This document shows positions 4,701 through 48,545 of a DNA stretch of 64,000 bases, piece after piece. The translations under genes and the position numbers were made by a program. Under the pieces are notes generated by a model. That model was not told the DNA's origin, ran no database searches, and was given only the letters and a program-made list of their open reading frames with translations. Position 1 is the stretch's first letter. The number at the start of each line of letters is the position of its first letter. Source of the stretch: Barthelona sp. PCE. Taxonomy: Eukaryota. The DNA lies in assembly GCA_040285745.1 (NCBI GenBank), contig JAUFOR010000002.1, forward strand, positions 1 to 64,000. The letters are read 5' to 3'.

Positions 4701-4769
4701 ATGAAAAAATAGACCAAGATTTTTGGTCTAGGCGCGTTTCGGCGGAGTTTGATTTGTTTTGACCATCTC

Positions 4770-25908: not shown

Positions 25909-26034
25909 TTCTGCTTTTAAGTCTCTATGTGACCACTGAAAAGGAATGAATAATAAATTGTGAATTCGCAAATCCAGAAAAGTTATTTTTCACTCCTTTC
26001 TAACACTGAACTTTATGTGTACCCCACTATAACT

Positions 26035-27501
26035 ATGACATTAACAGCAGAAGAGCACTCTCAGACAACTACATTAACCGCTGAGGTACAATCACAGAAT
26101 TTCAAGGCACAAGGAAACCAGTATTTTAAGGCTGGTCAGCTTGACGAGGCTATTAGTGCCTATACTCAAGGAATTGGTCTTTTTGAGACAGCCATTCTTT
26201 ATGCAAACAGAGCCGCCGTTCACCTCAAAAAAGGCTCATTCCGTCTGGCATTCCTTGACGCTGAAAAAGCCATTCTTTTTGACCCCGAATATACCAAGGC
26301 ATTTTACAGACGTGGATGTGCTTATTTGGGCATGCTCGAATTCGAGAATGGTCTTAAGGATTTTAAGATGGTCGTAGCAAGTCATCCAAGCGATCCCTTT
26401 GCTCGAAAGAAGCTCACTCAATGTCGTTCTTTACTCAAGAAGCTACGTATGCGTGAAATGCTCGTACACGATAGTAACCCTTTCCTTGAGAAAGAGGCAT
26501 TCTTTACAGAAAGTATTCCGAAGGGTTACGACCGCTACGTGCTCCCCACAATCACAGAGATCCCTAACATGACATGGGAGGACGTGATGGAGATGGTTGA
26601 CGCGTTTGAGAATCCTTCTAATAAGCTGCACTGGTCCCAGCTCAGACCCCTTCTCCGTGCGTGTTATAACATCTTAAAGGAGGAGAACACCGTTGTTAGG
26701 GTTAGCTGCGACGAGGCTGTTGTTTTTGGCGACACACACGGACAATTTTTTGACCTTGCTGCTGTTCTCAGACGCGGTGAAGAGTGTACTCCAGAGCGTC
26801 CCTTCATCTTCCTGGGCGACTATGTCGACCGTGGAGACCACAGCACAGAAATTCTGGCAGTTCTTATGGTTTTGAAGGTGCGCAATCCCAGTTCCATTAT
26901 TATTCTCAGAGGAAACCACGAATCTTCACAACTCTCTTCCATGTTTGGGTTCCAGGGAGAAGTGGAGGCTAAATACAGCGATAGCCTCATCCCTCTGTTC
27001 ACACACCTTTTCTTTGCCATGCCACTGTGTGCCGTAGTTAACGACACATATTTCTGCGTTCACGGTGGGTTGCCTGTTACCACGACTGATATGTCGGATC
27101 TCGAATCCATTGATAGATTCCATGAGGTCCCTTCTGACGGACCCTTTGCACAGCTCATGTGGGCAGACCCTTCTAAGACCGTTGAGCGTGGCCCCAGTGA
27201 GCGTGGCCCAGGCTTTAGTGTGTTTGGCAAGGGTATTATTGATAGTTTCTTAGCAGATAACGATTTGGAATATGTCATCCGTGCTCATCAAGTCTTCCAG
27301 GAGGGCCACGAGTGGTTCCACGATAAGCTCTTGAGTATATTCAGTGCTCCAAATTATATGGGATCGCAAAACAACGCAGCTTGTGTTGCAATAGTTTCTA
27401 AGGGGCGTCCAGTCATTGAAACCTTTTCTTCCATTAACCATCCTAAGTCATCGCATCTCTCATACGTTAATAACTTCTCGCAGGGCTTTATGGGTCGTTA
27501 A
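26035..27501 (+). CDS. PPP5C: Ser/Thr protein phosphatase 5 (TPR + PPP)
   Basis: Three TPRs, GDTHGQ, GDYVDRG, RGNHE, SAPNY. Confidence 0.93.
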   Translation: MTLTAEEHSQTTTLTAEVQSQNFKAQGNQYFKAGQLDEAISAYTQGIGLFETAILYANRAAVHLKKGSFRLAFLDAEKAILFDPEYTKAFYRRGCAYLGMLEFENGLKDFKMVVASHPSDPFARKKLTQCRSLLKKLRMREMLVHDSNPFLEKEAFFTESIPKGYDRYVLPTITEIPNMTWEDVMEMVDAFENPSNKLHWSQLRPLLRACYNILKEENTVVRVSCDEAVVFGDTHGQFFDLAAVLRRGEECTPERPFIFLGDYVDRGDHSTEILAVLMVLKVRNPSSIIILRGNHESSQLSSMFGFQGEVEAKYSDSLIPLFTHLFFAMPLCAVVNDTYFCVHGGLPVTTTDMSDLESIDRFHEVPSDGPFAQLMWADPSKTVERGPSERGPGFSVFGKGIIDSFLADNDLEYVIRAHQVFQEGHEWFHDKLLSIFSAPNYMGSQNNAACVAIVSKGRPVIETFSSINHPKSSHLSYVNNFSQGFMGR

Positions 27502-27642
27502 TATTCAATAAATTACTCAGGCTTTTTGCTTTTTCTTATACATTCATTTAGTGCTAATAAAATACTTTGTATAGCATTAAAAGTGGTATTCAAGGTAAGA
27601 TAAAATGATTTTTCGTTAAAAGAGTGTTGCTTTATTGTTTTA

Positions 27643-30600
27643 ATGGGTTTTCAAACGTTTTTGTTTCATTTTCTTTTTTTAGGGGCATTTGTTCAAGTTT
27701 TAGGAGCTCATTATCAGGAAAATTTTGTGTTCCAAGCAGAACCTGACAGTAATTTGGTAATCGTCATCAAAGTGGGTGAGAACAATGTGTTCAATTTGAG
27801 GGATACAGATGTCATACTGATGTGGGAACATCCCACACCAGCTTCTTCCATCTATATAAATAATTGTACTGGTGTAACTTTTCATATTAATAACACATTT
27901 ATGGTTCATGATCTCGTAAATTTCATCATAGAAGGATCAGATATCTCGGTGATACCCATTGAATCGAGAACAGAGCTTTCTATTTCAACGATTCTGCTTG
28001 AGATCTTCCGTTCAACTGTTCGGCAACCATTAGGCGGAATCTTCAGCGGAACAAAAGCCACAGTGTGGGGGTCAACTTTTGACAGCTTATCCTTACATTA
28101 CACAAATATCGATATAGCCGATACTCACTTGACCAAGTTTCTCGACGTTAATTGCAGAGAGCATATAATGCTCTCCGGTGTGCAGTTCGCAGAAGGGATG
28201 ATGAAAGTATTCATTACAGCCAATACAACATCGCTTAACAGGATTGGGGGTTTGCAATTCATGAATATTAAATCAAACGCTGTTTCATTTAATTGTTCAT
28301 CCGGGAACACGCTCACATTGAGTCTTTGGAGGAAGGACAGCACTGTGCATATCCATAACGCAACATTCAAGAGTATCATATTCACACACGGAGAAGATGG
28401 GTCGTTAAGCGTTGATGCCTTGAGCTTTGCGCAAATTGATATTGCAACAATCACAATAGAGGATATGGATATTGCCAACATTAAGATTACTAATATTGAG
28501 GTGAAAGTGTGGAGATCTAGGCCTGGTTGGTCTTTTATACGTTCCCTGGTTAGCCGTGTTGAGCTGACTGACAGTACCTTTAACAATGCATTTATAGCCT
28601 GGTTTCTCGTCACACAGAGCGAAATACGAAAGTTTGTTGTATTGAATACCACATTTTCAAATGTTTACTGTGATTTCAACAATATTAGCTTCTCTCCAAT
28701 TGGAGTACAGCGATTATCTTTAGTCGATGTGCATTTCAGCAATGTAAGAAGCATCGAGCCGTTGATCAAGAGTAATAATGTCCAACAAGCAGCGTTTGAC
28801 TCGGTTACGTTTGATCGTTCAGATATCCCAATCATCGCAAACGATTTCAGTCTGAACTCGGTAGTATTCAACTATGTTTCGTTCGGTGTTTCAATGCATG
28901 TGTCGATAATGGAGAACGTGTCGCTGACGAATTGCCATTCAAAGAGTGGCCTTCCCCTATTCACGTTCAAGGTTTTATTTGTGATGGATGTGAACATATC
29001 TTCATCAGTGCTTGAGCGTGTACTGTTCATGAGCCTCGAATTGTCAACGCATCAAATAGTATTCAACAGGTTAAACATCTATAATAGCTCAGTTGACACA
29101 TTCTTGATGAAGACTACAGGCACAGCAGTTAACGGTATTGTGGTGCAGAACGTAAACGTGACGGACACCACAATGAGTAGTTTTATCGATTTCAGCGAGA
29201 GGAGCAAGGTTTCCTTTTTCCTGTTAGAGTCTGTTACCTTTGATTTTTTCCGCTGTGGCGGTGTTATTCTGTTTAAAGCCTCATCACACGAGTTTATGCA
29301 GCAGAAAATCAACATACTAGACGTGCGTGTACGATCGTCGGTTTTTTCATATTTCCTTTTTGATGGAGGGGAAACAAAAAAGATCAGCATGGAAAATAGC
29401 AACATTGAGCTCTATGAGAATAGTGTAGGTTTCATTCTTTCTTCGACATCTCGGTCATTTTTTTTAGTCAACTCTTCACAGGTGTATGTTCATCAAAGGT
29501 CGCTTTTTGCCGCGCACATCTCATTTACAGAAGCAATATTCCACCTGTACGACTCTGTCTTCACCGTTGGAGAGTTAGAAGATATCCCATACATTTTTTA
29601 TGTGTTTAATGGGGATTTCATTTCAGATGACAACGTTACCATCATAGGGGGTCGAAGCTTGGTCAATAAGGTAAGAATGAGGGACGGATACACAATTTCG
29701 CGTATTGGCATCAACCGCATCACAGAATCATCTGTTGAGCTCGTGATTTCCTCTCACAACTTAATGTCTCACATGATAATTTTCTTTACGAGCAGTCCCT
29801 TTAGATGGGGATTTGTACACCTTGATGGGAGTGTGGCCTTACCTATCGAGCAGACCCAGGTACTTCAGGAGGGGTTATCAGTTACAGCTTTTGATGTCGA
29901 CGGAACTCTGCTATTTGTCGGTAACCCGCGACCAGTCGCGTGCCGTGGAGGCTTTGGTTGGTCAAATACTACACAAGCGTGCATTCCATGTTCTACTGGT
30001 TACCAGCAAATGCGGGTAACGAACAAACCACAGTGCCACATTGACGAACAGCTTCTTGGATTGGATTATATGGAGATTGATGCAGTAAGCGGCGCGTCAT
30101 ATCGTGTGAAACCTGGCTACTTTGTTAAAGAAATCAACCAGACCAGCGTTGCTCTCATTGATTGCATGAGTGAGTTCTGTACAGGTGGACAGGTTATCCC
30201 CGGACTCAGTGGCAAGCTTTCAGGATACTTTTTTTGGAGCGCTGATGAGCAGGTTGCTGTTGATCTAGTCTACAAGCACAACAATATTTCATACTCTGAG
30301 TTTACAGGATGTGCTCGAGGACATGAGGGTGTTGCATGCACACAGTGTACTGACGAACTTGCAATCAATGGTGTTGAGTTTATAGGATATCGTGCCATTA
30401 ATGGATGTATACTTGTGAAAAAAAGTGTCCTATGGGTTGTAACTCCTGTTCTCTGGTTGCAGTGTATTATTTTGTACCTATCCGTGCGGAATTTCCACAA
30501 GCTGGGTATGATTCCATGGACAAAGCTGCTGGGTGAGGATTTTGAAAGTGTGACGGACTACGAGGTCTTCCGTGTCCTTTCAACGGTCAAGGACTTTCTC

Positions 30601-31632
30601 CTGGTGGTCTACCCACTTGTCTTTTCGTCCACAGACGATGCATATTATGATTCTAATGCTTTTTGGTGTGCATTACAGCTCTTCATAAGTCCACTGAAAA
30701 CTTTAGCTATAGCATTTCACAACGATATTTGGAATCTTTACTTGTACTATGCCGGTGTTACGCTCCTTTCTCTCATCTTTCCACGCAGACAGCTTGATTT
30801 CTGGCAGATAATTGTGATGTACTCAGTAGCAATGAGGGTTTGCAGAATATGGTATCTTGATTACATTTTTATTATTGTTCTGGTTCCAGTATTCTTTTTC
30901 ATTCTTTTGAGGAGAGTTATGTTCGGATTTTTCGCCCTCGTTCTGCTGTTCTACTATAAAACCAGTCAAGAAGCAGCACTTTGGGTTATTTTGTTGGTTT
31001 ATTTTTCGCTTTCAAAAAGAAAGAAAGGAATGAACGATAAAGCAGATGTGATTAAGTCGAGGAATAATCTTTTTTCTTCCGCTTTCCTTGTGCTTCCATT
31101 TGTAACAAATCTAGCCATCTCAGACCTACTTCCCATCTACGTAAAGGATGTGCACGGACTGTATCCCGGATCATGGCACACATTAGATAATTTCAGTGCA
31201 GAATACAGCATATTGCAGCTGTTCATGTTGGTCCCATTTATTGTCATCTATACAGTACTTTTTGTCCAGATAAAGAAGACTGATAAGGACAGCGATCGTG
31301 GCTATCGTGTACACCTGTATGGTATTTTGGTTGGGAGGACATTATACACGTTTCTATCTATCCTTTCTCACAGTCATTTGCCGAGCTACGTTTTCTTGCT
31401 CGTAATCATGGTTTACATCATGTTTTCAGAGCCGTTCAATAATCTAAACAGTGGTATTTTGCGAATTCAAACCGTTTTATTCATGTTATGCTTTTTGGTT
31501 GATTCGATCAGCAAAGATTCTGTCGTTATGATTCTTTCCACGTGCGTCCCAGCTGTAACAGTGCTCATTCTCTCATTTGTTACGACCAAAAGGCACACCG
31601 TTCCCCAATCTTTGTATTTTGAAGTCTTGTAA
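27643..31632 (+). CDS. Large surface membrane protein: signal peptide, beta-helix-like ectodomain, Cys-rich stalk, multi-TM C-terminus
   Basis: Hydrophobic N-terminus; N/S/T/F-rich repeats; CxxC..C..GHEGVACTQC; many hydrophobic segments in the last ~400 aa. Confidence 0.8.
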   Translation: MGFQTFLFHFLFLGAFVQVLGAHYQENFVFQAEPDSNLVIVIKVGENNVFNLRDTDVILMWEHPTPASSIYINNCTGVTFHINNTFMVHDLVNFIIEGSDISVIPIESRTELSISTILLEIFRSTVRQPLGGIFSGTKATVWGSTFDSLSLHYTNIDIADTHLTKFLDVNCREHIMLSGVQFAEGMMKVFITANTTSLNRIGGLQFMNIKSNAVSFNCSSGNTLTLSLWRKDSTVHIHNATFKSIIFTHGEDGSLSVDALSFAQIDIATITIEDMDIANIKITNIEVKVWRSRPGWSFIRSLVSRVELTDSTFNNAFIAWFLVTQSEIRKFVVLNTTFSNVYCDFNNISFSPIGVQRLSLVDVHFSNVRSIEPLIKSNNVQQAAFDSVTFDRSDIPIIANDFSLNSVVFNYVSFGVSMHVSIMENVSLTNCHSKSGLPLFTFKVLFVMDVNISSSVLERVLFMSLELSTHQIVFNRLNIYNSSVDTFLMKTTGTAVNGIVVQNVNVTDTTMSSFIDFSERSKVSFFLLESVTFDFFRCGGVILFKASSHEFMQQKINILDVRVRSSVFSYFLFDGGETKKISMENSNIELYENSVGFILSSTSRSFFLVNSSQVYVHQRSLFAAHISFTEAIFHLYDSVFTVGELEDIPYIFYVFNGDFISDDNVTIIGGRSLVNKVRMRDGYTISRIGINRITESSVELVISSHNLMSHMIIFFTSSPFRWGFVHLDGSVALPIEQTQVLQEGLSVTAFDVDGTLLFVGNPRPVACRGGFGWSNTTQACIPCSTGYQQMRVTNKPQCHIDEQLLGLDYMEIDAVSGASYRVKPGYFVKEINQTSVALIDCMSEFCTGGQVIPGLSGKLSGYFFWSADEQVAVDLVYKHNNISYSEFTGCARGHEGVACTQCTDELAINGVEFIGYRAINGCILVKKSVLWVVTPVLWLQCIILYLSVRNFHKLGMIPWTKLLGEDFESVTDYEVFRVLSTVKDFLLVVYPLVFSSTDDAYYDSNAFWCALQLFISPLKTLAIAFHNDIWNLYLYYAGVTLLSLIFPRRQLDFWQIIVMYSVAMRVCRIWYLDYIFIIVLVPVFFFILLRRVMFGFFALVLLFYYKTSQEAALWVILLVYFSLSKRKKGMNDKADVIKSRNNLFSSAFLVLPFVTNLAISDLLPIYVKDVHGLYPGSWHTLDNFSAEYSILQLFMLVPFIVIYTVLFVQIKKTDKDSDRGYRVHLYGILVGRTLYTFLSILSHSHLPSYVFLLVIMVYIMFSEPFNNLNSGILRIQTVLFMLCFLVDSISKDSVVMILSTCVPAVTVLILSFVTTKRHTVPQSLYFEVL

Positions 31633-33131: not shown

Positions 33132-34955
33132 CTACTGGAAAGACCACATACAAATTGCACCGTCCAAACCGACTGAAACCCACTTGTTCTGACCTAAGCT
33201 CACGATTCCAGTGATACGATGGCCATGTCCAGTACCATAAGAAGTTAGTTCAGCGGTTGTGAACGAGAAAACTCTGATACGCCCGTCTGAACAACCAACT
33301 ATGTACTTACTGTTGTCCTCATGCAGCTTAATGGCAGTGGGAAGCACTCCAGCTTCCAACTCAATCGCATCAATCATGCCTGTCTTGGTGATGTCCCAGT
33401 AACCAATTCGACCATCGCCTGACGCCGTGAGAATCGTTTTCTGGTCTCTGCACAGTTCAAGGCCGTAGATAGCACCCTGTGGTATACTGTGAATTGAGAT
33501 GCGGCGGTATGCCTCGAGATCCCACAATATAAATTGGGCATCCGAGCTGCTCGTGAGGGCGTACTTTTTGTCTGCAAACAGAGAAATGCTTGTGATTGGC
33601 ATGGTGTGCTCGTGGATGCTCGCCAGCATTCTTTGTTGTCGAACATCCCATACGCGGAACGTGCCGCTGGCATCACCACTAAGAAGGTGGCGCTTATCCA
33701 TGACTAGAAGGGCAGTAACCGGGCTTGTGTGCGCCTTATCTATGACCCAAATATGCTCTCCGGTGAGGGTGTCGTGCCCGCGAATAGATCCATCAGTGCA
33801 GCCAACAAATGCCACGGTTTGTCCAAGAGCGACGCAATGGCCCTCAGCCTGGAGGTATCCGCAGGAAAGCATTCTCATGGCGTCGTCCCAGACACGCACA
33901 GTCCCATCTTTGGAGACGGTGGCGAAGTTATTACCCATAGAGGACACATCGTAGATTTCATCGGAGTGGTTGTGTGAGAGAACGCTCACAGGGAACTGTG
34001 ACGCTGTAGTGGGGGACACATCGACGTATACGACCTCACCTGTGCTCGTCGTCGCCAACATCTGACACGTACCGAGGATGTCGCATGAACAGATGGGGTT
34101 CCCTAGCTGCTGGACAGACACCTCAAAGAACTGCACACCGTCACCAGACCAGAAGCGGATGGTACCGTCAACACTACCAACATAAAATCCTGCTGATGTA
34201 ATGTCTTTGTCTTCACCTGGCAGGACTGACTGGATGAGGGTGCTCGAGACCTGCAGTGTCTGGGACACCCTGCGGCTGGGAATATCGATCACATACACGT
34301 CGCCGGAAGAAGTACCGGCGTATATACGAAGACAATCGAGTGAGATACAACCTGCTGTGAAATCTCGACCGCGCATGATGGAGTGATCAATGTCAACGTC
34401 CAGTGAGCCCTCCTGTGGATCAAATGTAAGGAATACAAACTGCACACCAAGTAGCGCGATTAAAAATTGGTTTGTGGGACGTCTCTTAAGGTCACGGACG
34501 CGATCTACCCATAGGATATCGTTAATCTGCAAACGGTCGAAACGGCGATGCGCTACGATGGTTCCGTTGCTGATATTCCATACAATAAGGTGAGAATCGT
34601 CACTAACACCGTAACTGATAAGAAAAGGCCCTTCTGATGAAAATGTAAGCGCACTGATGCCGAAATCATGTTCCTCGAAGCGATACATCATCTGATTGGT
34701 GACTAAATCCCACACAATAACATCAGAGTTCTGACCAATTTGGCCAGTCGCGCAATAACGACCCGATGGATCCACCGCAATGCAGCTGATGGGTCCGTCG
34801 TGCCCCCTGAAGAAGATTTTATCGCTAGAATCATTGATATTACTCATCACGAGACTATTACCCAAACTATACACGTAATGCAAACCGTCTGGGAGAAGTT
34901 TGATTGTGTCGCTGTACACTCCCGAGCAGCCAACAACGTTCTGAAGTGAAATCAT
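33132..34955 (-). CDS. CFAP52: Cilia- and flagella-associated WD40 protein CFAP52/WDR16-like
   Basis: LQNVVG..VYSLG..FFRGHD..ATGQ..DVIVWD; TVSKDGTVRVWD; GHGHRIT..VSVGLDGAICMW; likely start MISLQ. Confidence 0.8.
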   Translation of the reverse strand: MISLQNVVGCSGVYSDTIKLLPDGLHYVYSLGNSLVMSNINDSSDKIFFRGHDGPISCIAVDPSGRYCATGQIGQNSDVIVWDLVTNQMMYRFEEHDFGISALTFSSEGPFLISYGVSDDSHLIVWNISNGTIVAHRRFDRLQINDILWVDRVRDLKRRPTNQFLIALLGVQFVFLTFDPQEGSLDVDIDHSIMRGRDFTAGCISLDCLRIYAGTSSGDVYVIDIPSRRVSQTLQVSSTLIQSVLPGEDKDITSAGFYVGSVDGTIRFWSGDGVQFFEVSVQQLGNPICSCDILGTCQMLATTSTGEVVYVDVSPTTASQFPVSVLSHNHSDEIYDVSSMGNNFATVSKDGTVRVWDDAMRMLSCGYLQAEGHCVALGQTVAFVGCTDGSIRGHDTLTGEHIWVIDKAHTSPVTALLVMDKRHLLSGDASGTFRVWDVRQQRMLASIHEHTMPITSISLFADKKYALTSSSDAQFILWDLEAYRRISIHSIPQGAIYGLELCRDQKTILTASGDGRIGYWDITKTGMIDAIELEAGVLPTAIKLHEDNSKYIVGCSDGRIRVFSFTTAELTSYGTGHGHRITGIVSLGQNKWVSVGLDGAICMWSFQ

Positions 34956-35159
34956 TTGAAATAGGGGATACAAAACAAAAGCGCTCAAAAATGATGAAAG
35001 TATCTTTTTATTATCGTTTAGGGGTGTGTTAATGGGTAAAAATGTCAGCAATCCTATTAAAAACAGTTGAAAAACAGTATATGTTAAGCTGAAATCATTG
35101 ATTGAACAGGTTGGTGCGTTCATTGATTGTGTGATTAATTGATGTAGATTAGGATGCTA

Positions 35160-36230
35160 TTATTGTCTGAAAGCGCATCCATTAATTACTATAACTGCAT
35201 GATCGTCTAATTGTTCAACTTGGACTTCTACATTAGGAAGAAACGCTTCTACAGTTAATATTGCTGTTCTGATATGGTTAGTAATGCGCACGACACTGAA
35301 GCGCGTCGTGCCTGCAGCTAGAGCAGCGTACATTATTATATTATCTGCTGTATTGACATCAAGAAAGCCATCATTAGCAGCCGCATCAAATTCATCAAAC
35401 AATGCAGGAATGCACTCTGGGGAGACGCCCAGCGCTGCTTTGTACGCTGGACCACTGATCTCTAGACAGACGGTCGGCTTCTTCCGATCGATGCGTTTTG
35501 GGTTTCTTACAATATTATCTTGTATTTGTAATTCAGCCTCCCAACCTCTGTTTTCAATTTCAGCTCGCACAGCCTCCACAATTGCCGTGTCGGAGGCAAG
35601 GGAGAAGTATAAATTAACATTTTTAGTTATTTGCTTATTAAAAATGTGAAAATCAAATCCTTTTAGTTTTTCTGCAGTTTCAACACTGAACGATGCCCGA
35701 GCACCACCACGTGGATAGAAACCATGGCGATGCAACGTGCTTTTAACTGTAACATCTTCTAAAAACATTTTTAAAACTGAATTGATGAAAAAATCTGAAA
35801 AAAAACTAAATGGAGGTGAAAAAGATACTATTGATCCTCCCTGAAGTTCCAATGTGGGCGGATTCTCCACAAAAACCATAAAAGGAAGGAAACTCTGGAT
35901 CATCAACGCAATACTAGAAGCAGAATTTGACTTGAGATCACAACGATCAGGTACAGAGTATTCACCTTCAGCAGGCTCAAAAACAAGAGTCTTAGAACCA
36001 ACTGCTATGTTATCACCTTCAATAGTACTTGCAGTAGCCCTAAAAGTTCTGGTAAATGTGTTCACTACCGTTAAATGTTGTTTTGCAAGTCCCTGATTCG
36101 GTCTTGTCTTACGGATATCGGTCATGACGAATGGTGTTCCAGTCAAAATGCTTAGAACAACTGAATTTCTTAGAATTTGTCCCCCACCTTCTCCACCATC
36201 TATTTTAACGTATCCTTCGTTTGCTTCCAT
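35160..36230 (-). CDS. RTCA: RNA 3'-terminal phosphate cyclase
   Basis: IDGGEGGGQILR, IRxxRPNxGLAxQHL, HGFYPRGG; catalytic His retained in TNHIRT (argues against Rcl1). Confidence 0.9.
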   Translation of the reverse strand: MEANEGYVKIDGGEGGGQILRNSVVLSILTGTPFVMTDIRKTRPNQGLAKQHLTVVNTFTRTFRATASTIEGDNIAVGSKTLVFEPAEGEYSVPDRCDLKSNSASSIALMIQSFLPFMVFVENPPTLELQGGSIVSFSPPFSFFSDFFINSVLKMFLEDVTVKSTLHRHGFYPRGGARASFSVETAEKLKGFDFHIFNKQITKNVNLYFSLASDTAIVEAVRAEIENRGWEAELQIQDNIVRNPKRIDRKKPTVCLEISGPAYKAALGVSPECIPALFDEFDAAANDGFLDVNTADNIIMYAALAAGTTRFSVVRITNHIRTAILTVEAFLPNVEVQVEQLDDHAVIVINGCAFRQ

Positions 36231-36382
36231 CGAATTTAAATGTCAAAAAAATTAAAAACCTGAATGAAAGAGCGGGAATATAAGTAATTGAGGTTTGTTC
36301 CTTTGATCCTTTTTTGATGTCTTAAAAAGACTTTTCAGAAAATGTTCTGATGGATTAAAGTATTATTTCACAAACATTTACA

Positions 36383-36873
36383 TTAATCAAAGGTCATAAG
36401 CTGAACTTCAACACCCTTAATACGGTTTAACTTAGAGAAGGCCTTGGCAATGAGACTCTGCTTGGTATCATCAAGAGAGAGTAAGATAACACCACTGGGG
36501 CTGCAAGCACCATCCTCGTTAGAGTGAAGACCAACTCTGGTGTTAATAGCACAACCAGACTTGCTCAAAACTTCGTTAACAGCAGGAACAGACTTCTTGC
36601 GGTCAGCAATGTGGATACCCATGATGGTAGAGGGAATATTACGATAGACGTCCCTGAATATTAGCTTAATAAAAAAAGAATTTGCATTAATATGAATCAG
36701 TGCTGACCAAGCATTTTAAAAGTATAAATTTAACACTGATCCTCTGTGAATACAAATATATCATTCAATCTATGAAAAAGAAAAACAAACATTTCTAGCT
36801 ACAGCAGTAAAGCTCTAGCTCAAAATATATATGTTATTCAAGAAAGATTGTAGATGTTTAACCAAACATACAT
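36383..36873 (-). CDS. TM1266-like ('iron-only hydrogenase system regulator'-like) small ACT/ferredoxin-fold protein, 90 aa; exon 1 coding part is only 'AT' (36873-36872), exon 2 is 36653-36383
   Basis: IMGIHIADR..VNEVLSKSGCAINTRVGLH..CSPSGVILL..KLNRIKGVEVQLMTF matches a bacterial family from anaerobes. Splicing 36871-36654 creates AT^G GAC GTC.. in frame. Confidence 0.75.
36654..36871 (-). other. Spliceosomal intron, 218 nt, splitting the start codon
   Basis: GTATGT donor; GCTAATATTCAG fused branch point/acceptor. Confidence 0.75.
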
Positions 36874-37111
36874 GTTTAAAGATATGAATGAAGGTTTAAT
36901 ATAGAATATGAGTTTTTTTCCTTCAGTTTCCTTCTCTGTTTATATCTGTCGATTGAATGGATGCTTTGCTACGACTTCAAGCCTGTAGTACAAAACGTAT
37001 CTCCACAATATCATGCTATATCAATTTTATTGCTTGTTATTGTAAATCTAGAATTATTTTGCTTTTTAAGTATAAAGAGAAATGTACAGAAGGCGAAATT
37101 CGATTACAGTC

Positions 37112-38742: not shown

Positions 38743-39729
38743 TTATGATACCTTTTCAGGCTCAACAATGGATGAAACAACAGTCATTTCGGTTGGTTTT
38801 ATCGCTGACCTCTCATTCTTGTTTCTTTGCAGATGATTCCCATACGCTACAATTACAACACCTACACATGTTCCAATGGCGAGATATATTTTGTACGCTG
38901 GAACGTTTATGTCCCTAATGATCTTTCCGAAAGCTAGTGCAAAGATTGGTTGCAGAATAACGGTGCTTCCCAAGAAGACTGGATGACATTTCGAGTTAAT
39001 GTAGGCCATGAGTGAATAGCTGATGAGCGTTGACAGAATACTCGCGTAGAGGATGGCGACAATAGCCGAAGAGTCCCTGAAATGCTCAACTCTGAATCCA
39101 TGCCCGAAAGCATACTGAGCAGCAATGAGTATTGGTACTGCTGACATGAACGTTGATGTGCTCAGGGGGAGCGGTAATGCCTCCACTTCACCCTCTTTCT
39201 CTGTCATGAATTTCTTCTGCAACACAAAAAATAGAGATACGCTGGCAGTTTGCGCCATGAAAACAACAACAGGGATAATATCTTCGTTCAAGGAAGTCAG
39301 GCGTTTGTAGTCGAAGAAAAGAGCGCAAGTGAACACAACAAAGACACCAACAACCAACTGGATGTTTGGTCGCGACTTGTTGGCACAAATTGAAAAGAAA
39401 AATGTAAAAACAGGAATCATTGACTGCATAACAGTGCTTAACCGGCTATCCGACTGAGAAAGGCCAATGAAAACCAAGCTTTGATTCAAAACAACACTGA
39501 AAATCATCAGGTGAATCGTACGAAGGGCAAATTTGACTTTGTAGCGTGCCCCGTATTTAATTTTTGTTGTAATGTAAAGGAGAATTGTCGCCAATAGAGT
39601 TCTGTATGCAACAAAGTCATATGATGTGAGCGTTTTGTTGATAGAAATTGGTTCCTCTGAAACAACGTGCAAACCTCCAAATTGAAGTTGAACAATGATT
39701 GCTAGAATATAAGGGTAGTACTTTTTCAT
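38743..39729 (-). CDS. EamA/DMT family transporter
   Basis: About 10 TM segments in two EamA halves; AYRTLLA, PVFTF, LQPIFA. Confidence 0.85.
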   Translation of the reverse strand: MKKYYPYILAIIVQLQFGGLHVVSEEPISINKTLTSYDFVAYRTLLATILLYITTKIKYGARYKVKFALRTIHLMIFSVVLNQSLVFIGLSQSDSRLSTVMQSMIPVFTFFFSICANKSRPNIQLVVGVFVVFTCALFFDYKRLTSLNEDIIPVVVFMAQTASVSLFFVLQKKFMTEKEGEVEALPLPLSTSTFMSAVPILIAAQYAFGHGFRVEHFRDSSAIVAILYASILSTLISYSLMAYINSKCHPVFLGSTVILQPIFALAFGKIIRDINVPAYKIYLAIGTCVGVVIVAYGNHLQRNKNERSAIKPTEMTVVSSIVEPEKVS

Positions 39730-39955
39730 TATGAACAAATGTAAAAAGGCCCGATAAAAGAGTGTTTCAGAAAACAAGGAACTTTGTTGTCAATGTGTTT
39801 CTTAACCACATGTTTAGAACGCTATGATGTATATTAGAGATTGGTACATACTCATAATAGGTACTCAATGTGGTATTACCAATTTTTACCTCATTCATAC
39901 ACTTTGCTTTTAAATAGCACTTTTATTTTTTGTATAGAAACACTCACATAACAAA

Positions 39956-41085: not shown

Positions 41086-43164
41086 TTACTTCAACGGCTG
41101 CGGTAGGGACGTGTATGTTTGACCCGTAGGGGTCTCTAATGTCTGGAAAGAATTTGTTCGTTTCAGATTGGCTGCCCCTAATGTTGAAATCGTCGGTGTC
41201 GTCAATATTGTGTCATCCAGTCGCGGTGTTTCCTCATCCTCACTCGTCTCCACGTTCTCCTCAAGATCCTTTTCGATTATCTTCTCCAGTGAAGTCTTAG
41301 AAAAATCAATTCCGCTCCGATGGGCCTTTAACTGAGCCTTGACAAAGGAATACTGCGCTGTTCTAGCTGTGACCTCTGACATCGTATCACTCTCTATTGA
41401 TGCGATCTTGTCCTCGCTCACAGGCTGCCATCTGTTACCGAGCTTCATAATTGATACACCTAGCGCCACAAGATCAGAGTCAATACCCAACAGCTTCGCT
41501 CCCTTCTCACTTGTGATTTTGCGGACGCTTCTGTTGAAGTCCAGCTCAGTGTGGTTCATCACATGAAACGCCGATCCATGGGACACGCCCAAACTCGCTA
41601 GACTTGTCTCCAGAGAGCCTATAGCAACTTCCAAATCTGAGGCTCGGAAAATCATTCCGTCCAGGCCACTGCTCAACGTTTTATGAGAGTTCTTCAACTT
41701 ATAGGACGTTGCAGTGTGTTCTCGGACCAGTATCTGCTGAGCCTTGGTCTTGGATGTTAGATCCTTGATCTTCCCCTGTTCAGACTTCAAAGTACTGTTG
41801 TAGTTGTCCGCCATTGTTTGGTATTTTGTTTGAAATTCGTCAAATAACTCAAACATGTCCTTTAGCTGAAAGCTTATTGTGTTTCTCGCATCCGTCGTGG
41901 TTTGCTGCGTGAAATCAATGGCATGCTGGATGCTGCGCATGCCTGTGTTAGCTAGATGCTTGATTTGGCCTGAGACAGAGTTCTGGGCCAGCTGGATGTC
42001 GCTGATCGAGTTACTAATGAATGCAGACAGCTGCTTCACTCTCCGCTCCATATCTGCCGTATCAGCCTTCACGGTGTCGACGCTGAGGTCCTGTAGTGAA
42101 TCGATGATCGCCCTCTCCTTTGACGCAACGTCTGTGTTAATAACATCTGTGACGGCAGTCATACGTTCGTCCAGTTGTTTAACACGCTCTCCTAGTCGAC
42201 TATTTGCAGTTTCTGTCTCGTCAACAAGATTCTTGAGCAGTCGTGCCCTTTGCGTGTTAGTATTTTCCAGACTTTCGAATAAAGCGTCGCTCTTCCTATC
42301 CAAAACACTAGTGTACTCTTCGAAGGAAGGCAGCTGGGCCTTAATATCAATTGCAAGCTGCTGCAGCTCGGCGATTCGATCATCATGATCTGTCAGATGA
42401 TTTGAGTTTTTGGCAACCTGTCCGAATCGGTGCAAAGTTTCAAATTTCATTTTTATGAGTGCGTTTATAAGTTTAGTCAGCCGGGCGCTCAATGATACAA
42501 TGGCCTCTCCCCTCTTCAAATGCATATTAGGTAGCGGATAGCTCATTTTGGATAACTTCTCCTCGACTTCTTCATCTTTTTTCGTCACCTCCGGTTGAAA
42601 CAAGGACTCTTTTAATTTGAACCTAAACTTTGAGCTGCCCCGAGGGGTGGGTGCTCTGGCACCGAACGTCAAACTCTCATCATCAGGTAGATCAACAACG
42701 TCATACTCCATTGCGGATCTATGATCATCGAGTTGTTTCACAAACTCTGAGGGAGAAATAAAGCTCTGTGGGAAGTCACCGACATACAGATCCTTCATGG
42801 CCTCACTTTGGTCCTTTAGAATCGAACATAAATCATCAACGTTCGAAATTTTTTGGATATTATTCAAAAGCGATAAAAATGAAATTTTGCACTCGTCAGC
42901 CTTGGAATTAATGTTAGAAGACATCTTCACGGTGAAATCATCCACGGTGCCAAGGATCTGATTGCACAATTGATGTACTGACTGCACCTCCGGATCTTCC
43001 GCCATATGCCCATAGATTTTGTTGTCGAAGAAGTCGGTTATCGTGTTTAGCGAGTGAGCAAGGATCATCAAATCGTTAACAACACCCGTAGGAGTCACAG
43101 AAAAGGCCCTATCGTTTTCGTTAACCTCAATATGTGCAGTTCTGAATAAATGCCCAACGTCCAT
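41086..43164 (-). CDS. Hypothetical coiled-coil protein
   Basis: 692-aa intact ORF, heptad-rich. Confidence 0.8.
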   Translation of the reverse strand: MDVGHLFRTAHIEVNENDRAFSVTPTGVVNDLMILAHSLNTITDFFDNKIYGHMAEDPEVQSVHQLCNQILGTVDDFTVKMSSNINSKADECKISFLSLLNNIQKISNVDDLCSILKDQSEAMKDLYVGDFPQSFISPSEFVKQLDDHRSAMEYDVVDLPDDESLTFGARAPTPRGSSKFRFKLKESLFQPEVTKKDEEVEEKLSKMSYPLPNMHLKRGEAIVSLSARLTKLINALIKMKFETLHRFGQVAKNSNHLTDHDDRIAELQQLAIDIKAQLPSFEEYTSVLDRKSDALFESLENTNTQRARLLKNLVDETETANSRLGERVKQLDERMTAVTDVINTDVASKERAIIDSLQDLSVDTVKADTADMERRVKQLSAFISNSISDIQLAQNSVSGQIKHLANTGMRSIQHAIDFTQQTTTDARNTISFQLKDMFELFDEFQTKYQTMADNYNSTLKSEQGKIKDLTSKTKAQQILVREHTATSYKLKNSHKTLSSGLDGMIFRASDLEVAIGSLETSLASLGVSHGSAFHVMNHTELDFNRSVRKITSEKGAKLLGIDSDLVALGVSIMKLGNRWQPVSEDKIASIESDTMSEVTARTAQYSFVKAQLKAHRSGIDFSKTSLEKIIEKDLEENVETSEDEETPRLDDTILTTPTISTLGAANLKRTNSFQTLETPTGQTYTSLPQPLK

Positions 43165-43267
43165 CTCACATAGCCAGGTTACGCGCTGCGCTATAGAATA
43201 TACAACGACTAAAGAGAAGAATTTGGAATAGCAGGTGTTTCACATTTTCTCATCCATTTCAATACTA

Positions 43268-44525
43268 ATGAAGGGTATTTTTGTACTTTTGGTTGCTTTC
43301 GCGATGGTATTTGTATGTGATTAATTTATTGAAAATGTTTGTTCCTAACATTTAGGCCTTAGAGGCTGTTGTACCCGAAAAGGAGCCTATCTTCTTCGAT
43401 AACTTCGACAATCTCGACAAGTGGGTCGTTTCCACCAAACCCGGTTTCACTGGAAAGTGGGAGAACGTTGTCCCCCAAGCACCTGCTGGTTACCCTAATG
43501 ATAAGGGACTTATGGTTGCTTCACCCGCAAGAAAGCACGCCATTATTGCCGGTTTCCCTACTTATAATATTGATTTGAACAAGGATTCACTCATTGTTCA
43601 GTATGAAGTTCGTTTCCAAAAGTCTCACCAATGCGGTGGTGCGTATCTCAAAATCACTCGTGAAGACATTGGTGCCAACTTTGAGGATAAGACTCCTTAT
43701 GGTATCATGTTTGGCCCCGATTATTGTGGTGGAAACAACAAGGTTCACTTGATTCTGCAATATCCCGTCGCTTCGGGTGGATATCAGGAGAAGCATCTGA
43801 CCAATCCCCCAAGAATCAAGCATGATGAGATCTCCCATCTCTACACTCTTGTTCTTTCTAAAAACCATTACAAGGTTATTATTGATGGTTCTGTTGCCAA
43901 GGAGGGCAAGCTCTCCACCGACTTCGATCCCGCCATCGAACTTCCCAAGACCATTGAAGATCCCACCGACAAGAAACCCGCTACATGGGACGACCGTAAG
44001 CAGATTCCCGACCCCGAGAAGGCAGATGCCCCAGAGGACTGGCCAGTTGAGTTCATTGCCGACGATACCGAGATCCCTGAATACTGGGATGAGGAGGAAG
44101 ACGGTGAGTGGGAGGCACCCATGATGCCCAACCCAGAGTTCGTTCCGTACACAGCTCCTTTGATTGATAATCCTGACTATATGGGCGAGTATATTGTCCA
44201 GAAGATCGAGAACCCAGAGTATGTTGAGGTCGATAGCGCTGTTGTTGGTCCAATTTCGGGTGTTGGTATTGACATCTGGACCATGCAAGACAAGATTTTG
44301 TTTGATAACGTTCTCATCACTACACACGATAGCGATCGTCTCTTGCTCGAGGACTACTGGAAGGGTAAATTCGACATCGAGTCTGCCGCCAAGCGTGAGA
44401 AGGAGGAGGCCGATCGAAAGATTGCCGAAGAAGAACGCAAGCAGCGTGAAGCTGAAGAAGCTCTCCAAAAGGAAATTGAGGAAGAGGAGGTTGAGATCGA
44501 TTACGATTTCGCTGAAGACCTTTAA
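43268..44525 (+). CDS. Calnexin/calreticulin-family ER lectin chaperone, soluble, ending AEDL; exons 43268-43312 and 43356-44525
   Basis: Signal peptide MKGIFVLLVAFAMVF^ALEA; CGGAYLK, IMFGPDYCG, P-domain DP..KP..WD / GEWEAPMMPNP; no TM; acidic tail. Confidence 0.92.
43313..43355 (+). other. Spliceosomal intron, 43 nt
   Basis: GTATGT...CCTAACATTTAG; removal joins the signal peptide in frame to the 43512 ORF. Confidence 0.9.
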
Positions 44526-44678
44526 GTAGTAAATTGTTGAGTTGATGAAAGAACAGGCTAACATATGTTTTAGATTAAAGTAAATATTTATCTTCAACGA
44601 TAGTTTTTATCGCTCAAAGACCCAATATGCCCTATAAAATAACGATAACACTGTTTTCGTTATTTTACCATATCTCGC

Positions 44679-47600
44679 ATGTTAGATCTTAAGGGATTTA
44701 GTAAACGGACGCAGCAATTCATAGAGAATCTTGCGTCTCAGTGCGAAGATACCCAAAGTCAGCGTGAGTTAATGATATTTGTGGAAGAAATTTTGCTTTT
44801 GTCAAAAACCAAAGATGAACTGCAATCACAGATCGAGGACAACCGTGCACGAGAAAAGGGCCTTGCTTTACAGAAGAAGAGCGTTGACGATGCAAACAAT
44901 GAGATTGCTCGATTGCGTTCTTTAAATGAAGAGGCTGTTAGCAATTTTTCGTCTCTTAAAGCGGAGCACGACAACCTTAACGACGTTGCAAGCAAAATGG
45001 AGGGTGTTATTATGGATTATAGAAGTCAAATAACTCAGTTATCTTCGGAAAACGAAGCGTTGGGTTCGCGAGTTGAAAAGCTCATGGATGATCTGGACAG
45101 AACTCCCACAGCATCCGAGGAAGGCGACGTTGCTGAATTACAAGAGCGTATGAATGCTTTACAGGAAGAAATCATTGCTCTTCGACTTGATATGTCAACA
45201 AAGGATGAGGAGCTGCATTTGATGCGCCAGTCATACGTGTCGTCAACAGTTGCAACAGATGATGCCAGCATTGGGTTGGAAAAGGAGCTTGAGAGGGCAA
45301 ATCTGACGATTGAACTTCTTAACAGACAGGTTGAACAGGGAAGCGCTGCTGATGAGGACATGGCAACCAATCTTGCGCTGTTTGCGACCGAAAACAGGAT
45401 GTTGGAAGAGAGGCTCGAGGGCTACGAAGAGCTGAAACAGGAGAACGAGAATCTCCAAGAGCAGCTGAGTCTCGCCAACGAGCTGCTCGTTGCGCACAGT
45501 CTTGATGACCACATAACGGACGGAGAAGGCGATCTAGTACAGCAACTCTCACACACGGTGTCCGTAAACAACTCAACAATAGCTTCCTTGCGAGCGGAGC
45601 TTGACGAGCGCGAAACGCACATTTCTACTTTGAAGCACAGATGCCAAGAGCTCGACGACATGGACGTGAAGGTTGCTTCTCTGCAGACGCGACTCGACGC
45701 AAAGACAGAGCTGGCGGCAGACTACAAGAAGCAGATGAGTGCGATGCAGGATGAACTAGATGGCATCCCTGATATTCTAAAAGGAACAGCTACACTCGAG
45801 GCATCTATTGAGGCGCTCAACGCAGAAATATTCTCACTACGTGAAGCTAACGAGGCTCAGATGATGGAATTAAGGGTGCTGAATGAGAAGTATACACGAG
45901 AGAAGGAGGAGAATAGCAGAATGTCTTTGGAGAGCGTGAGCGTTGAGCGTATTCTATCTGACTTTGAGATGACAACGAACAAACTCAGGGAACAGCATCA
46001 GGTTGAGGTTTTGAGGTTGGAGAAGCAGTTGAATGATGTACGTGCTGAGTGTGTTGTTCAGGCCACACAACTCAAGTCTGTTGACGGGGAGCGCATAGAA
46101 AAGCTCGAAACAGATCTCAAGATGAAGGAGAAACTCGTAAACACACTGTCTTCATCGCTCAGTGACTATCAAGAAATTGGAACTGTTGACGAGTGCAATT
46201 ACTACGCACAGCTTGCCGCAGAGCACGCACAACTTGATGCAGAGCATGCAGATCTCGTGTTAGAGCATGATCGTGTCAGTAAGGCCGCAGCCGCATCAGA
46301 AGATCGAGTCACTGAGCTAGAGACCGAATTTGGAAGAGCTCAGCGAGATCAGTTTATGTCCAACGAGGCTCGTGATGCCGCCGTTCGTGAGGCAGTATTG
46401 CTCAAGGAGGAGTTGATTTTGAAGACGGAAGAACTCGAGTACAGCTGTATGAAGCTGAAGAAGGTTGACGAAGCACTCACCAAGGCGCTTGCGGCAGAGA
46501 GCGAGATGAAGCAGGCGCTGGAGAGGCGTAACTTCGAGCTTGGCAGACAGTCGACGATTGTCACAGAGTTGCGCACAGAGTTATCAAGTTCACAAAGCGT
46601 GGAGAGCATCACTGAGCTCGACCGTCTGCGCAAGCGTATTGATCAGCTCAAACGTGCAAACGCAAAAGCCATCAAAGAAAATGTCGTTCTTGCACGTCGC
46701 ATCGTTGGTCTCAAGCACATTCCCGAGGATGACGACGTTGCAGCGCGTGCACAGGAGCTGGTGGAGATGAGCAATGCGCTCGATGATGTCACAAAGGAAA
46801 GAGATGCGCTCGAGAAGCAGTTTACCGCCCTCAAGGAACAACACGCATCTTTTGTAGCCCGTAACACGTTTGACGTGGAGCGCATGAAGCAGCTGGCATG
46901 GCTGCAGGACTCGAACAAATACCTCCGATCTGAGCTTGAAGGAGAGCGTGAGAAGCAAACACTGGCGGAGGAGCTCAAGACAGAATGCGATAAACTGCAG
47001 GAGGCCAACATAGAGCTGGAACATAAACTTGACACAGAGCTTGGCGCGGTGACAGAGAAGCACGAGGCGCTGCAGATAAGATATGAGGACGCTCTATCGA
47101 AAAACGCAAAGTGTTTGAATCAGCTCAAGGTTCTCACAAAACAGACAGCTCATCAAAAGATTATTATTGCGAACCAGAAGCAGGCTGCACAGGCAATGCA
47201 GCAGGAGCTAACACAAGCACAAGAAAGAGCAGGAAAAGCCGTTGCAATTGATAAGGATGCCCGATTGGTTGCGTTGCTGCAGAGATCTGCATCCATGCTT
47301 CGCACAGCGTACGAGGATGGAGATGATATCTCTGTCAGAGAGCCCAAAAAAGAGCAAGCGGCAAAGCCCAAAAAAGAATCCAAGCCCAAAAAGGAATCCA
47401 AGCCCAAAAAGGAATCAAAGACTAGTAAGAATAGTAAGGATGATATTAAAGAGGTTATAGATGTCGTTGAACCCAAGCGCACTGCCTCAAACAGCGTGAA
47501 CGTACAGGAACAGAGCACGGAGCCTGCAATTAAGAAACAGAAAGTGAGTGACGTACCATCACCTGATGAAATCGAACCACTACCGCACGCTGAGGTCTTC

Positions 47601-48545
47601 CAGTTTCTGAACTCATTTGTCGAGCGATTTAACGAGCGTCTTTCCGCTGAACCCCCAATTGCAATCATGTCTGTGCTTCGAAAAATGGGCTTGAAGCCAA
47701 ATACACCAGTTGAGCAGTTTCTGGAGGTTACATACAGTAAGATTTTGTCACAAACAGACTTCACTAGGGATAGGAACGTGTATGATATGCACCGTTACCT
47801 TTCAAAAACGCTTGATGAGTTAGTGTCGTTTGGTCAGGAAATTTTGTGTAATGATGAGATTCTCTGGGCAATTGTTGTACAGTACGGTAAGGTCGATCCC
47901 AATTCTACGAGGGTGGAGATGCTATGCGGAGCCCTGCTTTCACTTTTCGAGAAATACTTTTCCGATTCTGTTGCAATTGCAGAAGAAGTTGAAGAGGATA
48001 TTGTTGAGCCCACTACTCAAGAGGAAGAGCCTACTATTCAAGAGGATATTGTTGAGCCCACTACCCAAGAGGAAGATCCTACAGTTGAAGAGGAAACCGA
48101 TGAAGTGATGGAGGATGTAGAGGAGCTTGAATCTGAGGAACTTCAAATGGAAGAGGAGCCTGCTGAGGAGACTGAGATAGTCTATGATTCACCCACAGAA
48201 AATCTTGAAGATCCTCAGGAAAGCATTGATGAAAGCATTGAAGACATGGAGGAGGCTGTTGAAGAGACTGTTGAGGAAGATGAAGAAGAAGATGAGTATG
48301 AGGAAACACGTGCTAGGCTACGAGAGATATATGCTGAGGAACTTGAGCTCCCCACTGACGTTGAAGAGATGGAAGAGGAAGAAGAAGCGGTTGAAAGTCC
48401 TGAACCTGAACCTGAGCAAGAACCTGAACAAGAACTTGAAGATGAAGAAGAAGAACTAGAAGAAGAAGAAATACATGAAGAAATCATAGATGACGAAGTA
48501 GAACTCTCAGACGATGATTTTGATGTAAGTGACATTGAGATGTAG
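44679..48545 (+). CDS. Large coiled-coil protein with very acidic C-terminal tail
   Basis: 1288-aa ORF, ~870 aa of heptads, KPKKES x3, E/D-rich tail. Confidence 0.85.
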   Translation: MLDLKGFSKRTQQFIENLASQCEDTQSQRELMIFVEEILLLSKTKDELQSQIEDNRAREKGLALQKKSVDDANNEIARLRSLNEEAVSNFSSLKAEHDNLNDVASKMEGVIMDYRSQITQLSSENEALGSRVEKLMDDLDRTPTASEEGDVAELQERMNALQEEIIALRLDMSTKDEELHLMRQSYVSSTVATDDASIGLEKELERANLTIELLNRQVEQGSAADEDMATNLALFATENRMLEERLEGYEELKQENENLQEQLSLANELLVAHSLDDHITDGEGDLVQQLSHTVSVNNSTIASLRAELDERETHISTLKHRCQELDDMDVKVASLQTRLDAKTELAADYKKQMSAMQDELDGIPDILKGTATLEASIEALNAEIFSLREANEAQMMELRVLNEKYTREKEENSRMSLESVSVERILSDFEMTTNKLREQHQVEVLRLEKQLNDVRAECVVQATQLKSVDGERIEKLETDLKMKEKLVNTLSSSLSDYQEIGTVDECNYYAQLAAEHAQLDAEHADLVLEHDRVSKAAAASEDRVTELETEFGRAQRDQFMSNEARDAAVREAVLLKEELILKTEELEYSCMKLKKVDEALTKALAAESEMKQALERRNFELGRQSTIVTELRTELSSSQSVESITELDRLRKRIDQLKRANAKAIKENVVLARRIVGLKHIPEDDDVAARAQELVEMSNALDDVTKERDALEKQFTALKEQHASFVARNTFDVERMKQLAWLQDSNKYLRSELEGEREKQTLAEELKTECDKLQEANIELEHKLDTELGAVTEKHEALQIRYEDALSKNAKCLNQLKVLTKQTAHQKIIIANQKQAAQAMQQELTQAQERAGKAVAIDKDARLVALLQRSASMLRTAYEDGDDISVREPKKEQAAKPKKESKPKKESKPKKESKTSKNSKDDIKEVIDVVEPKRTASNSVNVQEQSTEPAIKKQKVSDVPSPDEIEPLPHAEVFQFLNSFVERFNERLSAEPPIAIMSVLRKMGLKPNTPVEQFLEVTYSKILSQTDFTRDRNVYDMHRYLSKTLDELVSFGQEILCNDEILWAIVVQYGKVDPNSTRVEMLCGALLSLFEKYFSDSVAIAEEVEEDIVEPTTQEEEPTIQEDIVEPTTQEEDPTVEEETDEVMEDVEELESEELQMEEEPAEETEIVYDSPTENLEDPQESIDESIEDMEEAVEETVEEDEEEDEYEETRARLREIYAEELELPTDVEEMEEEEEAVESPEPEPEQEPEQELEDEEEELEEEEIHEEIIDDEVELSDDDFDVSDIEM
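47364..47417 (+). repeat. Coding 18-bp tandem repeat x3 (KPKKES)
   Basis: AAGCCCAAAAARGAATC[C/A] x3. Confidence 0.9.
47992..48083 (+). repeat. Coding 48-bp duplication (EDIVEPTTQEE x2)
   Basis: AAGAGGATATTGTTGAGCCCACTAC at 47992 and 48040. Confidence 0.85.

Follow-up and report, generated by a model that had tools for sequence, protein, structure and literature searches.

A eukaryotic, laterally acquired member of the uncharacterised CPF_0552 family in the genome of Barthelona sp. PCE

Genes for TM1266-like and CPF_0552-type proteins are some of the last to remain unexplained among those that accompany the [FeFe]-hydrogenase maturases. TM1266 itself presumably lies beside hydG in Thermotoga. 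The ACT domains and the C-terminal domain of NikR are small modules with binding sites for amino acids or metals between their subunits. Here, we analysed a small gene on the minus strand, at positions 36383-36873, of a 64,000-nucleotide stretch of the genome of Barthelona sp. PCE (assembly GCA_040285745.1, contig JAUFOR010000002.1, positions 1 to 64,000), referred to below as the window. An earlier note had described the gene as coding for a bacterial TM1266-like protein domesticated in a eukaryote, with no characterised eukaryotic member known. We conclude that it is a genuine eukaryotic gene, acquired laterally, which belongs to a known, uncharacterised family, and that its interest lies mainly in the phyletic pattern of that family. 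A search of a paper library by family names and identifiers turned up no account of any eukaryotic member and none of what the family does, nor any paper using the family's identifiers; two uncharacterised eukaryotic proteins, GIQ82522.1 and KAL0220707.1, were already present in the databases.

The gene is intact and has a 90-amino-acid product under the spliced model. The coordinates and length proposed for it earlier match the sequence exactly, as do the motifs read in its product (TRVGLH, CSPSG and ILL..KLNRIKGVEVQ). Residue numbering and analyses throughout use the translation of exon 2, P0001, which has 89 amino acids. The parts of the gene are as follows.

36872-36873, minus strand: exon 1, AT, the first two bases of the start codon, with GTATGT directly after
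36654-36871, minus strand: putative spliceosomal intron of 218 nucleotides, phase 2, within the start codon, placed by motif, frame and homology
36871-36866, minus strand: canonical 5' splice site of the intron, GTATGT
36664-36660, minus strand: branch-like CTAAT of the intron, followed by four bases and AG
36386-36653, minus strand: exon 2, the G completing ATG and 89 codons (DVYRN...LMTFD)
36620-36622, minus strand: internal ATG, Met11 of P0001 and Met12 of the 90-amino-acid protein, start of the 79-amino-acid intron-less form
36551-36553, minus strand: codon of C34
36524-36541, minus strand: codons of T38-R39-V40-G41-L42-H43, the best-conserved block of the family
36491-36505, minus strand: codons of C50-S51-P52-S53-G54; C50 covaries with C34
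36383-36385, minus strand: stop codon TAA

By profile and predicted fold, the protein belongs to the TM1266-like superfamily, and within it to the CPF_0552 subfamily, and is not the hydrogenase-linked TM1266 equivalog. It passed the Pfam model PF21699 (TM1266-like) with 28.7 bits against a gathering cut-off of 27 (E 1.3e-6, profile positions 4-72 of 74) and matched the NCBIfam model NF052672 (CPF_0552 family) over positions 2-80 of 80 with 85.6 bits (E 1.5e-24), a marginal pass that lies 0.6 bits over the cut-off of 85. The equivalog model TIGR03959 (hyd_TM1266), the profile proposed earlier for checking the assignment, was missed at 32.3 versus 60.8 bits, which moves the protein from the hydrogenase-linked group into its sister subfamily. 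An AlphaFold2 model built with 105 homologues was confident (predicted local distance difference test, pLDDT, 92.5; predicted template modelling score, pTM, 0.82), and DSSP assigned strands to residues 9-15, 36-42, 54-60 and 81-87 and helices to residues 18-31 and 62-76, the beta-alpha-beta-beta-alpha-beta order of an ACT-like, ferredoxin-like fold. The best Foldseek match in the PDB was TM1266 (2nzc; E 8.6e-7, template modelling score 0.73-0.79), with ACT domains, NikR and PII-like proteins next in rank; similarity to 2nzc by sequence alone was marginal (E 0.14). The ACT/NikR-C-like nature of the protein, proposed when the gene was first noticed, is thus borne out by both profiles and by the fold match. 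Prediction of a homodimer from two copies (score 0.03, mark 0.32) counted neither way.

Conservation among 104 homologues points to a possible binding site. Residues Q26, R39 and G41 are invariant among them, and R18, G33, I36, H43 (98 of the 104), G54, L58 and L75 are nearly so. C34 and C50 covary, with both present in 78 homologues, neither in 18 and one only in 8, which suggests a joint redox or metal site as a candidate. The window protein retains 11 of 12 core residues (R18, G33, C34, I36, R39, G41, H43, C50, G54, L58 and L75), and also T38 and L42. The exception is position 26, where it has Asn versus Gln in 104 of 104 homologues; at position 59 it has Ser versus Glu or Gln in most of them. 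Ahead of strand 1 stands a tail of only 9-10 residues (MDVYRNIPS), in agreement with the absence of an obvious presequence reported before.

The nearest relatives of the protein are prokaryotic. A HMMER scan of 1.84 billion representative sequences returned 231 proteins at E<=1e-3, the best of them, apart from the protein itself, having 48% identity. The top cluster consists of proteins from metagenome-assembled genomes of Planctomycetota and Deltaproteobacteria that carry the NCBI name 'CPF_0552 family protein', and the nearest relatives (at most 48% identity) come from metagenome-assembled genomes of anaerobic bacteria. NF052672 was matched by all 105 of 105 aligned homologues. Six of the best 60 matches (P0009, P0016, P0028, P0031, P0044 and P0047) are tandem two-domain TM1266-like fusions of 165-182 amino acids, in which domain 1 resembles a paralogue found in Bacteroidales (AH..R.GFHE...CSR) and domain 2 is of the CPF_0552 type.

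The surroundings of the gene are eukaryotic. The window is gene-dense, with about 42% G+C, and codes for RtcA, WD40 proteins, a Tma46-like protein, calreticulin, PP5, zuotin, Vps26, Ulp1 and adenylosuccinate lyase, as well as for the flagellum-related cytosolic carboxypeptidase and a SHIPPO-repeat protein. The RtcA-type RNA cyclase is encoded directly downstream of the small gene. Four of the neighbours are referred to below.

35160-36242, minus strand: RtcA-type RNA 3'-phosphate cyclase, with a double stop TAA TAG at its end
33132-35156, minus strand: 674-amino-acid WD40 protein, after the cyclase, in the same frame and with zero spacer
43270-44525, plus strand: calreticulin, its signal peptide separated from the mature part by a 43-nucleotide intron
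53422-53685: RPS25

The codons of the small gene are strongly biased (Lys AAG 7/7, Asn AAC 4/5, His CAC 2/2, Gln CAG 2/2). Its lone AAT codon lies in the N-terminal tail, so the core is, as had been noticed earlier, all AAG for Lys and all AAC for Asn. The bias is similar to that of RPS25 (Lys 9/10, Asn 3/3) and calreticulin (Lys 26/31) and unlike that of average neighbours such as RtcA (Lys 6/15, Asn 6/20). Bacterial contamination or an assembly chimera, which the almost entirely prokaryotic distribution of the rest of the family would suit, is therefore an explanation that we practically discount, as the earlier note did: eukaryotic genes flank the small gene on both sides in one 64-kb stretch, the gene is listed on a contig of 2,128,580 bases, the best bacterial identity is just 48%, codon usage agrees with RPS25 and calreticulin of the host, and the full domain has no in-frame ATG unless spliced. 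Because of its eukaryotic flanks, likely intron, host codon usage and prokaryotic nearest relatives, the gene is best read from its sequence as a lateral acquisition from anaerobic bacteria that was then domesticated in a eukaryotic chromosome, as originally proposed.

The putative intron lies within the start codon, in the layout AT/GTATGT...CTAATATTCAG/G. The upstream minus-strand letters are aaacAT/GTATGTttgg, with AT at 36873-36872 and GTATGT at 36871-36866, and the 3' splice end at 36664-36654 reads gCTAATATTCAG/G. Directly before the DVYRN frame stands ttaagCTAATATTCAG/GGACGTC, with the AG ending at 36654. Excision of 36871-36654 (218 nucleotides) joins AT and G to give ATG GAC GTC..., exactly in frame, and there is no further in-frame ATG between the upstream stop at 36942-36940 and 36873 on the minus strand. 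The calreticulin gene has a 43-nucleotide intron at 43313-43355 (GTATGT...CTAACATTTAG), which is needed to link the signal peptide (MKGIFVLLVAFAMVF) to the mature part. Both introns have the same design, with GTATGT and with four bases between a CTAAY box and the AG, and the calreticulin case is evidence that short introns in which the branch box stands four bases before the AG occur in this genome. A fused branch-point and 3'-splice-site motif of this kind is also a feature of introns in Giardia and Trichomonas. A scan with Rfam of 36200-37100 for an RNA carried by the intron gave a chance-level match to SNORD75 only (16.7 versus 50 bits).

We also considered that there is no intron and that a single exon starts at the internal ATG (36622-36620), yielding a protein of 79 amino acids. 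The stop-to-stop frame at 36383-36715 reads ...IFRDVYRNIPSTIMGIHIADRKK...GVEVQLMTFD up to the stop, and the internal Met is its first ATG. Exactly this form (P0002) is the one present in the public protein collection, in line with the public gene call, and the intron of the longer form is a prediction from sequence. Strict pairs of splice motifs are moreover not rarer than chance (4 observed versus a mean of 2.2 in 50 shuffles). On the other side, alignments with bacterial homologues begin 2-3 residues before the internal Met (query positions 8-9; 'STIMGI' versus 'TTIMGI' and 'KVIMGF'), and strand 1 of the structure model begins two residues ahead of this Met, which is residue 11. At this position the homologues simply have one of the hydrophobic residues of the strand, L, M or I. 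Considering the exactly restored frame, the calreticulin intron of like design, and the homology and strand 1 upstream of the internal Met, the spliced model appears credible and is likely to be right; the intron-less form seems unlikely.

We next looked up the listed matches with N-terminal extensions and found three eukaryote-type homologues, the only ones among the 150 matches listed: GIQ82522.1 (P0071) from Kipferlia bialata and KAL0220707.1 (P0013) from Eukaryota sp. TZLM3-RCL, both annotated as hypothetical proteins, and P0030, which has a Kipferlia-like N-terminal extension. In a quick tree of 149 rows, the window protein was sister to the TZLM3-RCL protein (Shimodaira-Hasegawa-like approximate likelihood ratio test, SH-aLRT, 89). 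A careful tree of 58 rows did not recover that pair; in it, the window protein grouped with P0030 and another, unnamed match. When all four eukaryote-type proteins were held together in the 58-row analysis, the tree was 2.31 log-likelihood units better than the free search (approximately unbiased test, p-AU, 0.571). The trees rest on about 90 columns and contain long branches, so that they show no more than that a single clade of the four proteins is not rejected and that one ancient acquisition would be compatible with the data.

The link of the family to hydrogenase was assessed in prokaryotic genomes. Using a degenerate DNA pattern for GC.IKTRLGLH, we gathered at least 120 loci from many anaerobic phyla, 119 of which had the small open reading frame (ORF) and 97 of these at least two upstream ORFs in the available DNA. 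HydG (499.7 bits for TIGR03955) was encoded within three genes on either side in 28 of the 119 bacterial and archaeal loci, mostly directly upstream and on the same strand. When all neighbouring ORFs were clustered, the only large recurrent groups besides HydG were a second TM1266-like paralogue (16/119 loci), carbamate kinase (11/119), EamA transporters (9/119) and HydF (6/119; 561.7 bits). Two loci from Hydrogenedentota have hydG, the small gene, an aspartate-ammonia-lyase-like (aspA-like) gene, hydF and hydE in a row, with scores of 629.9 bits for the AspA-like protein and 302.9 bits for HydE. Among ten whole genomes carrying the small gene, HydG scored over the cut-off in nine. The placement beside hydE, hydF and hydG that the earlier note gave for the TM1266 type holds for the CPF_0552 subfamily at some of its loci.

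Several individual loci deserve mention. In four from Bacteroidales (L013, L021, L009 and L017), genes for an EamA transporter, HydG, the TM1266-like paralogue, a sensor histidine kinase and the CPF_0552-type protein form, in this order, a conserved cluster, and a divergently transcribed gene for carbamate kinase lies next to it. A locus from Myxococcota (L090) encodes, directly upstream of the small gene (2552-5371, minus strand), a 940-amino-acid protein whose C-terminal half is HydG (518.9 bits) and which has about 470 amino acids in its N-terminal part. A Bathyarchaeia record from an archaeal metagenome bin (L027) has hydG, the small gene, a gene for a 447-amino-acid protein and a hydE-like gene in a row. 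An EamA transporter is also encoded in the window, at 38743-39789, but its transfer together with the small gene was rejected, as it has no similarity to the EamA proteins near the bacterial homologues.

In eukaryotes the picture is mixed. The hydrogenase and HydE, HydF and HydG are identified in the Kipferlia genome, according to its description (PMC5874029). For all barthelonids and skoliomonads, including TZLM3-RCL, PMC11316075 reports the [FeFe]-hydrogenase HydA but none of HydG, HydE and HydF, and cytosolic H2 production is inferred there for skoliomonads. A CPF_0552-type gene thus persists in at least one eukaryote reported to lack all maturases. Within the 64-kb window, tblastn with bacterial HydG, HydE and HydF gave nothing at E<0.05, though in a eukaryote one would not expect linkage of the operon type. 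If the gene were a decaying remnant of a transfer long ago, functionless now, this would accord with the reported loss of maturases in the lineage of the TZLM3-RCL homologue (PMC11316075) and with the replaced Gln26. Such a relic is very unlikely, as the reading frame is intact, the other core residues are kept (R18, G33, C34, I36, T38, R39, G41, L42, H43, C50, G54, L58 and L75), the structure model is confident and the codon bias is strong and similar in kind to that of RPS25.

Taken as a whole, we lean towards the view that this is a functional nuclear gene of bacterial origin for an ACT-like CPF_0552 protein (of 90 or 79 amino acids) with an ancestral role linked to HydG and the ability to bind a ligand or metal. 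The gene would have been acquired from anaerobic bacteria and then domesticated in the eukaryote. By analogy with other ACT/NikR-C-type modules, the protein might bind a small ligand or metal, the candidate site being the covarying Cys34 and Cys50, the nearly invariant His43, and Arg18 and Arg39, and it could report or hand something to a partner. The ancestral role was most likely regulatory or accessory to HydG-dependent synthesis of the H-cluster, because the only recurrent partner context in bacteria is that of H-cluster maturation genes (hydG, aspA-like, hydF and hydE). The role it has today may be a different one, concerned for instance with cytosolic HydA or with the handling of Fe, S or cysteine. 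The window protein is probably cytosolic, because it lacks the N-terminal extension of the three other eukaryote-type homologues.

A different view, quite possible though short of probable, is that the function is unrelated to hydrogenase, the protein being a generic ACT-like sensor of small molecules or metals, or a chaperone, for which adjacency to hydG is one of several uses. Several results favour this view and weigh against a hydrogenase-linked one. HydG was not found within three genes at 91 of the 119 loci, where the neighbours are heterogeneous (among them nucleoside phosphorylase, UDP-galactopyranose mutase, L,D-transpeptidase, transporters and sensor kinases), and the search pattern demands an exact GC.IKTRLGLH block, so the family sample is biased. 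In 150 Clostridia genomes, HydG was not enriched among carriers (20 of 26, leaving six in which it was not found) versus non-carriers (77 of 124; Fisher p 0.18), and in these genomes weak TM1266-type matches adjoin hydG while CPF_0552-type ones do not. NCBIfam separates the CPF_0552 family from the hydrogenase equivalog, the score of the window protein for the latter being far below its cut-off. In the lineage of the TZLM3-RCL homologue, HydA is reported to occur without HydE, HydF and HydG (PMC11316075), which makes a simple role as a maturase accessory doubtful there, and the window protein is altered at two otherwise conserved positions (Q26N and E/Q59S). Against an unrelated function stand the facts that hydrogenase maturase genes are the only recurrent functional neighbours, that the small gene lies inside hydG-X-aspA-hydF-hydE operons, that HydG is still encoded in nine of the ten whole genomes and 20 of the 26 Clostridia carriers, and that every named carrier seen, prokaryote or eukaryote, is an anaerobe-type organism. 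A role in hydrogenase maturation, as suggested earlier, is plausible from the hydG-linked bacterial loci.

Within the Clostridia, five genomes (G003, G019, G036, G042 and G044) have weak NF052672 matches of the TM1266 type (21-34 bits) a few kb from hydG. In G003 the strong CPF_0552-type copy is 4.5 Mb away from hydG. With the weak TM1266-type matches near hydG and the strong CPF_0552-type copy far from it, the two subfamilies differ in their linkage in Clostridia.

One further idea concerns metamonads that have [FeFe]-hydrogenase and are reported to have lost HydE, HydF and HydG. There, a retained, cytosolic CPF_0552-type protein could take part in producing or regulating active hydrogenase by a route that needs no maturases, for instance by carrying or sensing a precursor derived from iron or cysteine via the Cys34/Cys50/His43 site. 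We regard this as improbable, although it would, if true, offer a handle on the old question of where eukaryotes that lack maturases, Giardia among them, get an active H-cluster from.

Other features of the window concern the host more than the small gene. PP5 (25957-27501, plus strand) has about 36% identity to the best other PP5 found, unusually low for such a conserved enzyme and a sign, from sequence comparison, of a very fast-evolving or deep lineage. The nearest relatives of the RtcA-type cyclase are prokaryotic, at only about 32% identity. ORFs of 700-1340 amino acids, for example those at 27604-31632, 44649-48545, 6723-8975, 54725-56998 and 41086-43239, had no Pfam match at E<=1e-5. 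The host lineage is very divergent, given that the relatives of PP5 and RtcA reach only 32-36% identity and that many long ORFs lack a Pfam match. Together with the eukaryote-type relatives of the small protein, the fused branch-point and 3'-splice-site motif and the flagellar genes, this divergence suggests as the likely host a flagellated, probably anaerobic metamonad of the fornicate and barthelonid-skoliomonad region. At 1565-4396 (plus strand), three abutting ORFs in the same frame are joined by in-frame TGA codons at 2345-2347 and 3743-3745, and the middle one matches the reverse-transcriptase model RVT_1 with 69.4 bits. The likely explanation is a retroelement that has decayed or that relies on TGA read-through. 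An alternative genetic code was considered for these TGA-joined ORFs and set aside, since a decayed reverse-transcriptase element explains them most simply, and the standard code was kept.

Our analysis adds three points to what is known of these proteins. In several phyla, hydG-aspA-hydF-hydE operons also include members of the CPF_0552 subfamily, a group that NCBI treats as distinct from TM1266. Its covarying Cys pair and nearly invariant His suggest a redox or metal site. The subfamily has entered anaerobic eukaryotes and has been kept both together with the maturases, in Kipferlia, and in a lineage reported to be without them. The last point amounts to a natural experiment, as a protein that served HydG only would be expected to be lost together with HydG. 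Its retention in the lineage reported to lack maturases and the strong codon bias of the window gene therefore suggest that the protein does more than serve HydG. In practical terms, the protein is small and easy to express, and it offers obvious targets for mutation.

The closest described group is the CPF_0552 family (NF052672), named after a Clostridium perfringens locus tag and uncharacterised, whose members likewise have about 80-90 amino acids and a single domain. The window protein shares the signature DR...Q..L(T/S)..GC.I.TR.GLH......CSP.G.(I/L).L....L..I.GV.V with this family, yet has Asn at the position of Gln26 and Ser at position 59. It differs further in being eukaryotic, in its probable intron and host codon usage, and in a score barely over the cut-off. 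Its three eukaryote-type relatives, GIQ82522.1, KAL0220707.1 and P0030, belong to the same subfamily with about 32-44% identity to it. Each of them has about 20 extra N-terminal residues resembling organelle presequences, which the window protein lacks, and in all four the usual Glu59 is absent. ACT domains (of phosphoglycerate dehydrogenase and RelA/Rel) and the C-terminal metal-binding domain of NikR have the same fold (Foldseek E about 1e-4) but only 10-20% identity, and the window protein has no DNA-binding or enzymatic domain attached to it. TM1266 of Thermotoga maritima (2nzc; TIGR03959, 'TM1266 family iron-only hydrogenase system putative regulator') shares both the fold and the Pfam family PF21699 with the window protein, whereas the GC...GLH...CSP.G residues of the latter are missing from TM1266 in the 2nzc alignment. 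The place that CPF_0552-type genes occupy beside hydG in some bacteria is nevertheless comparable to that of TM1266.

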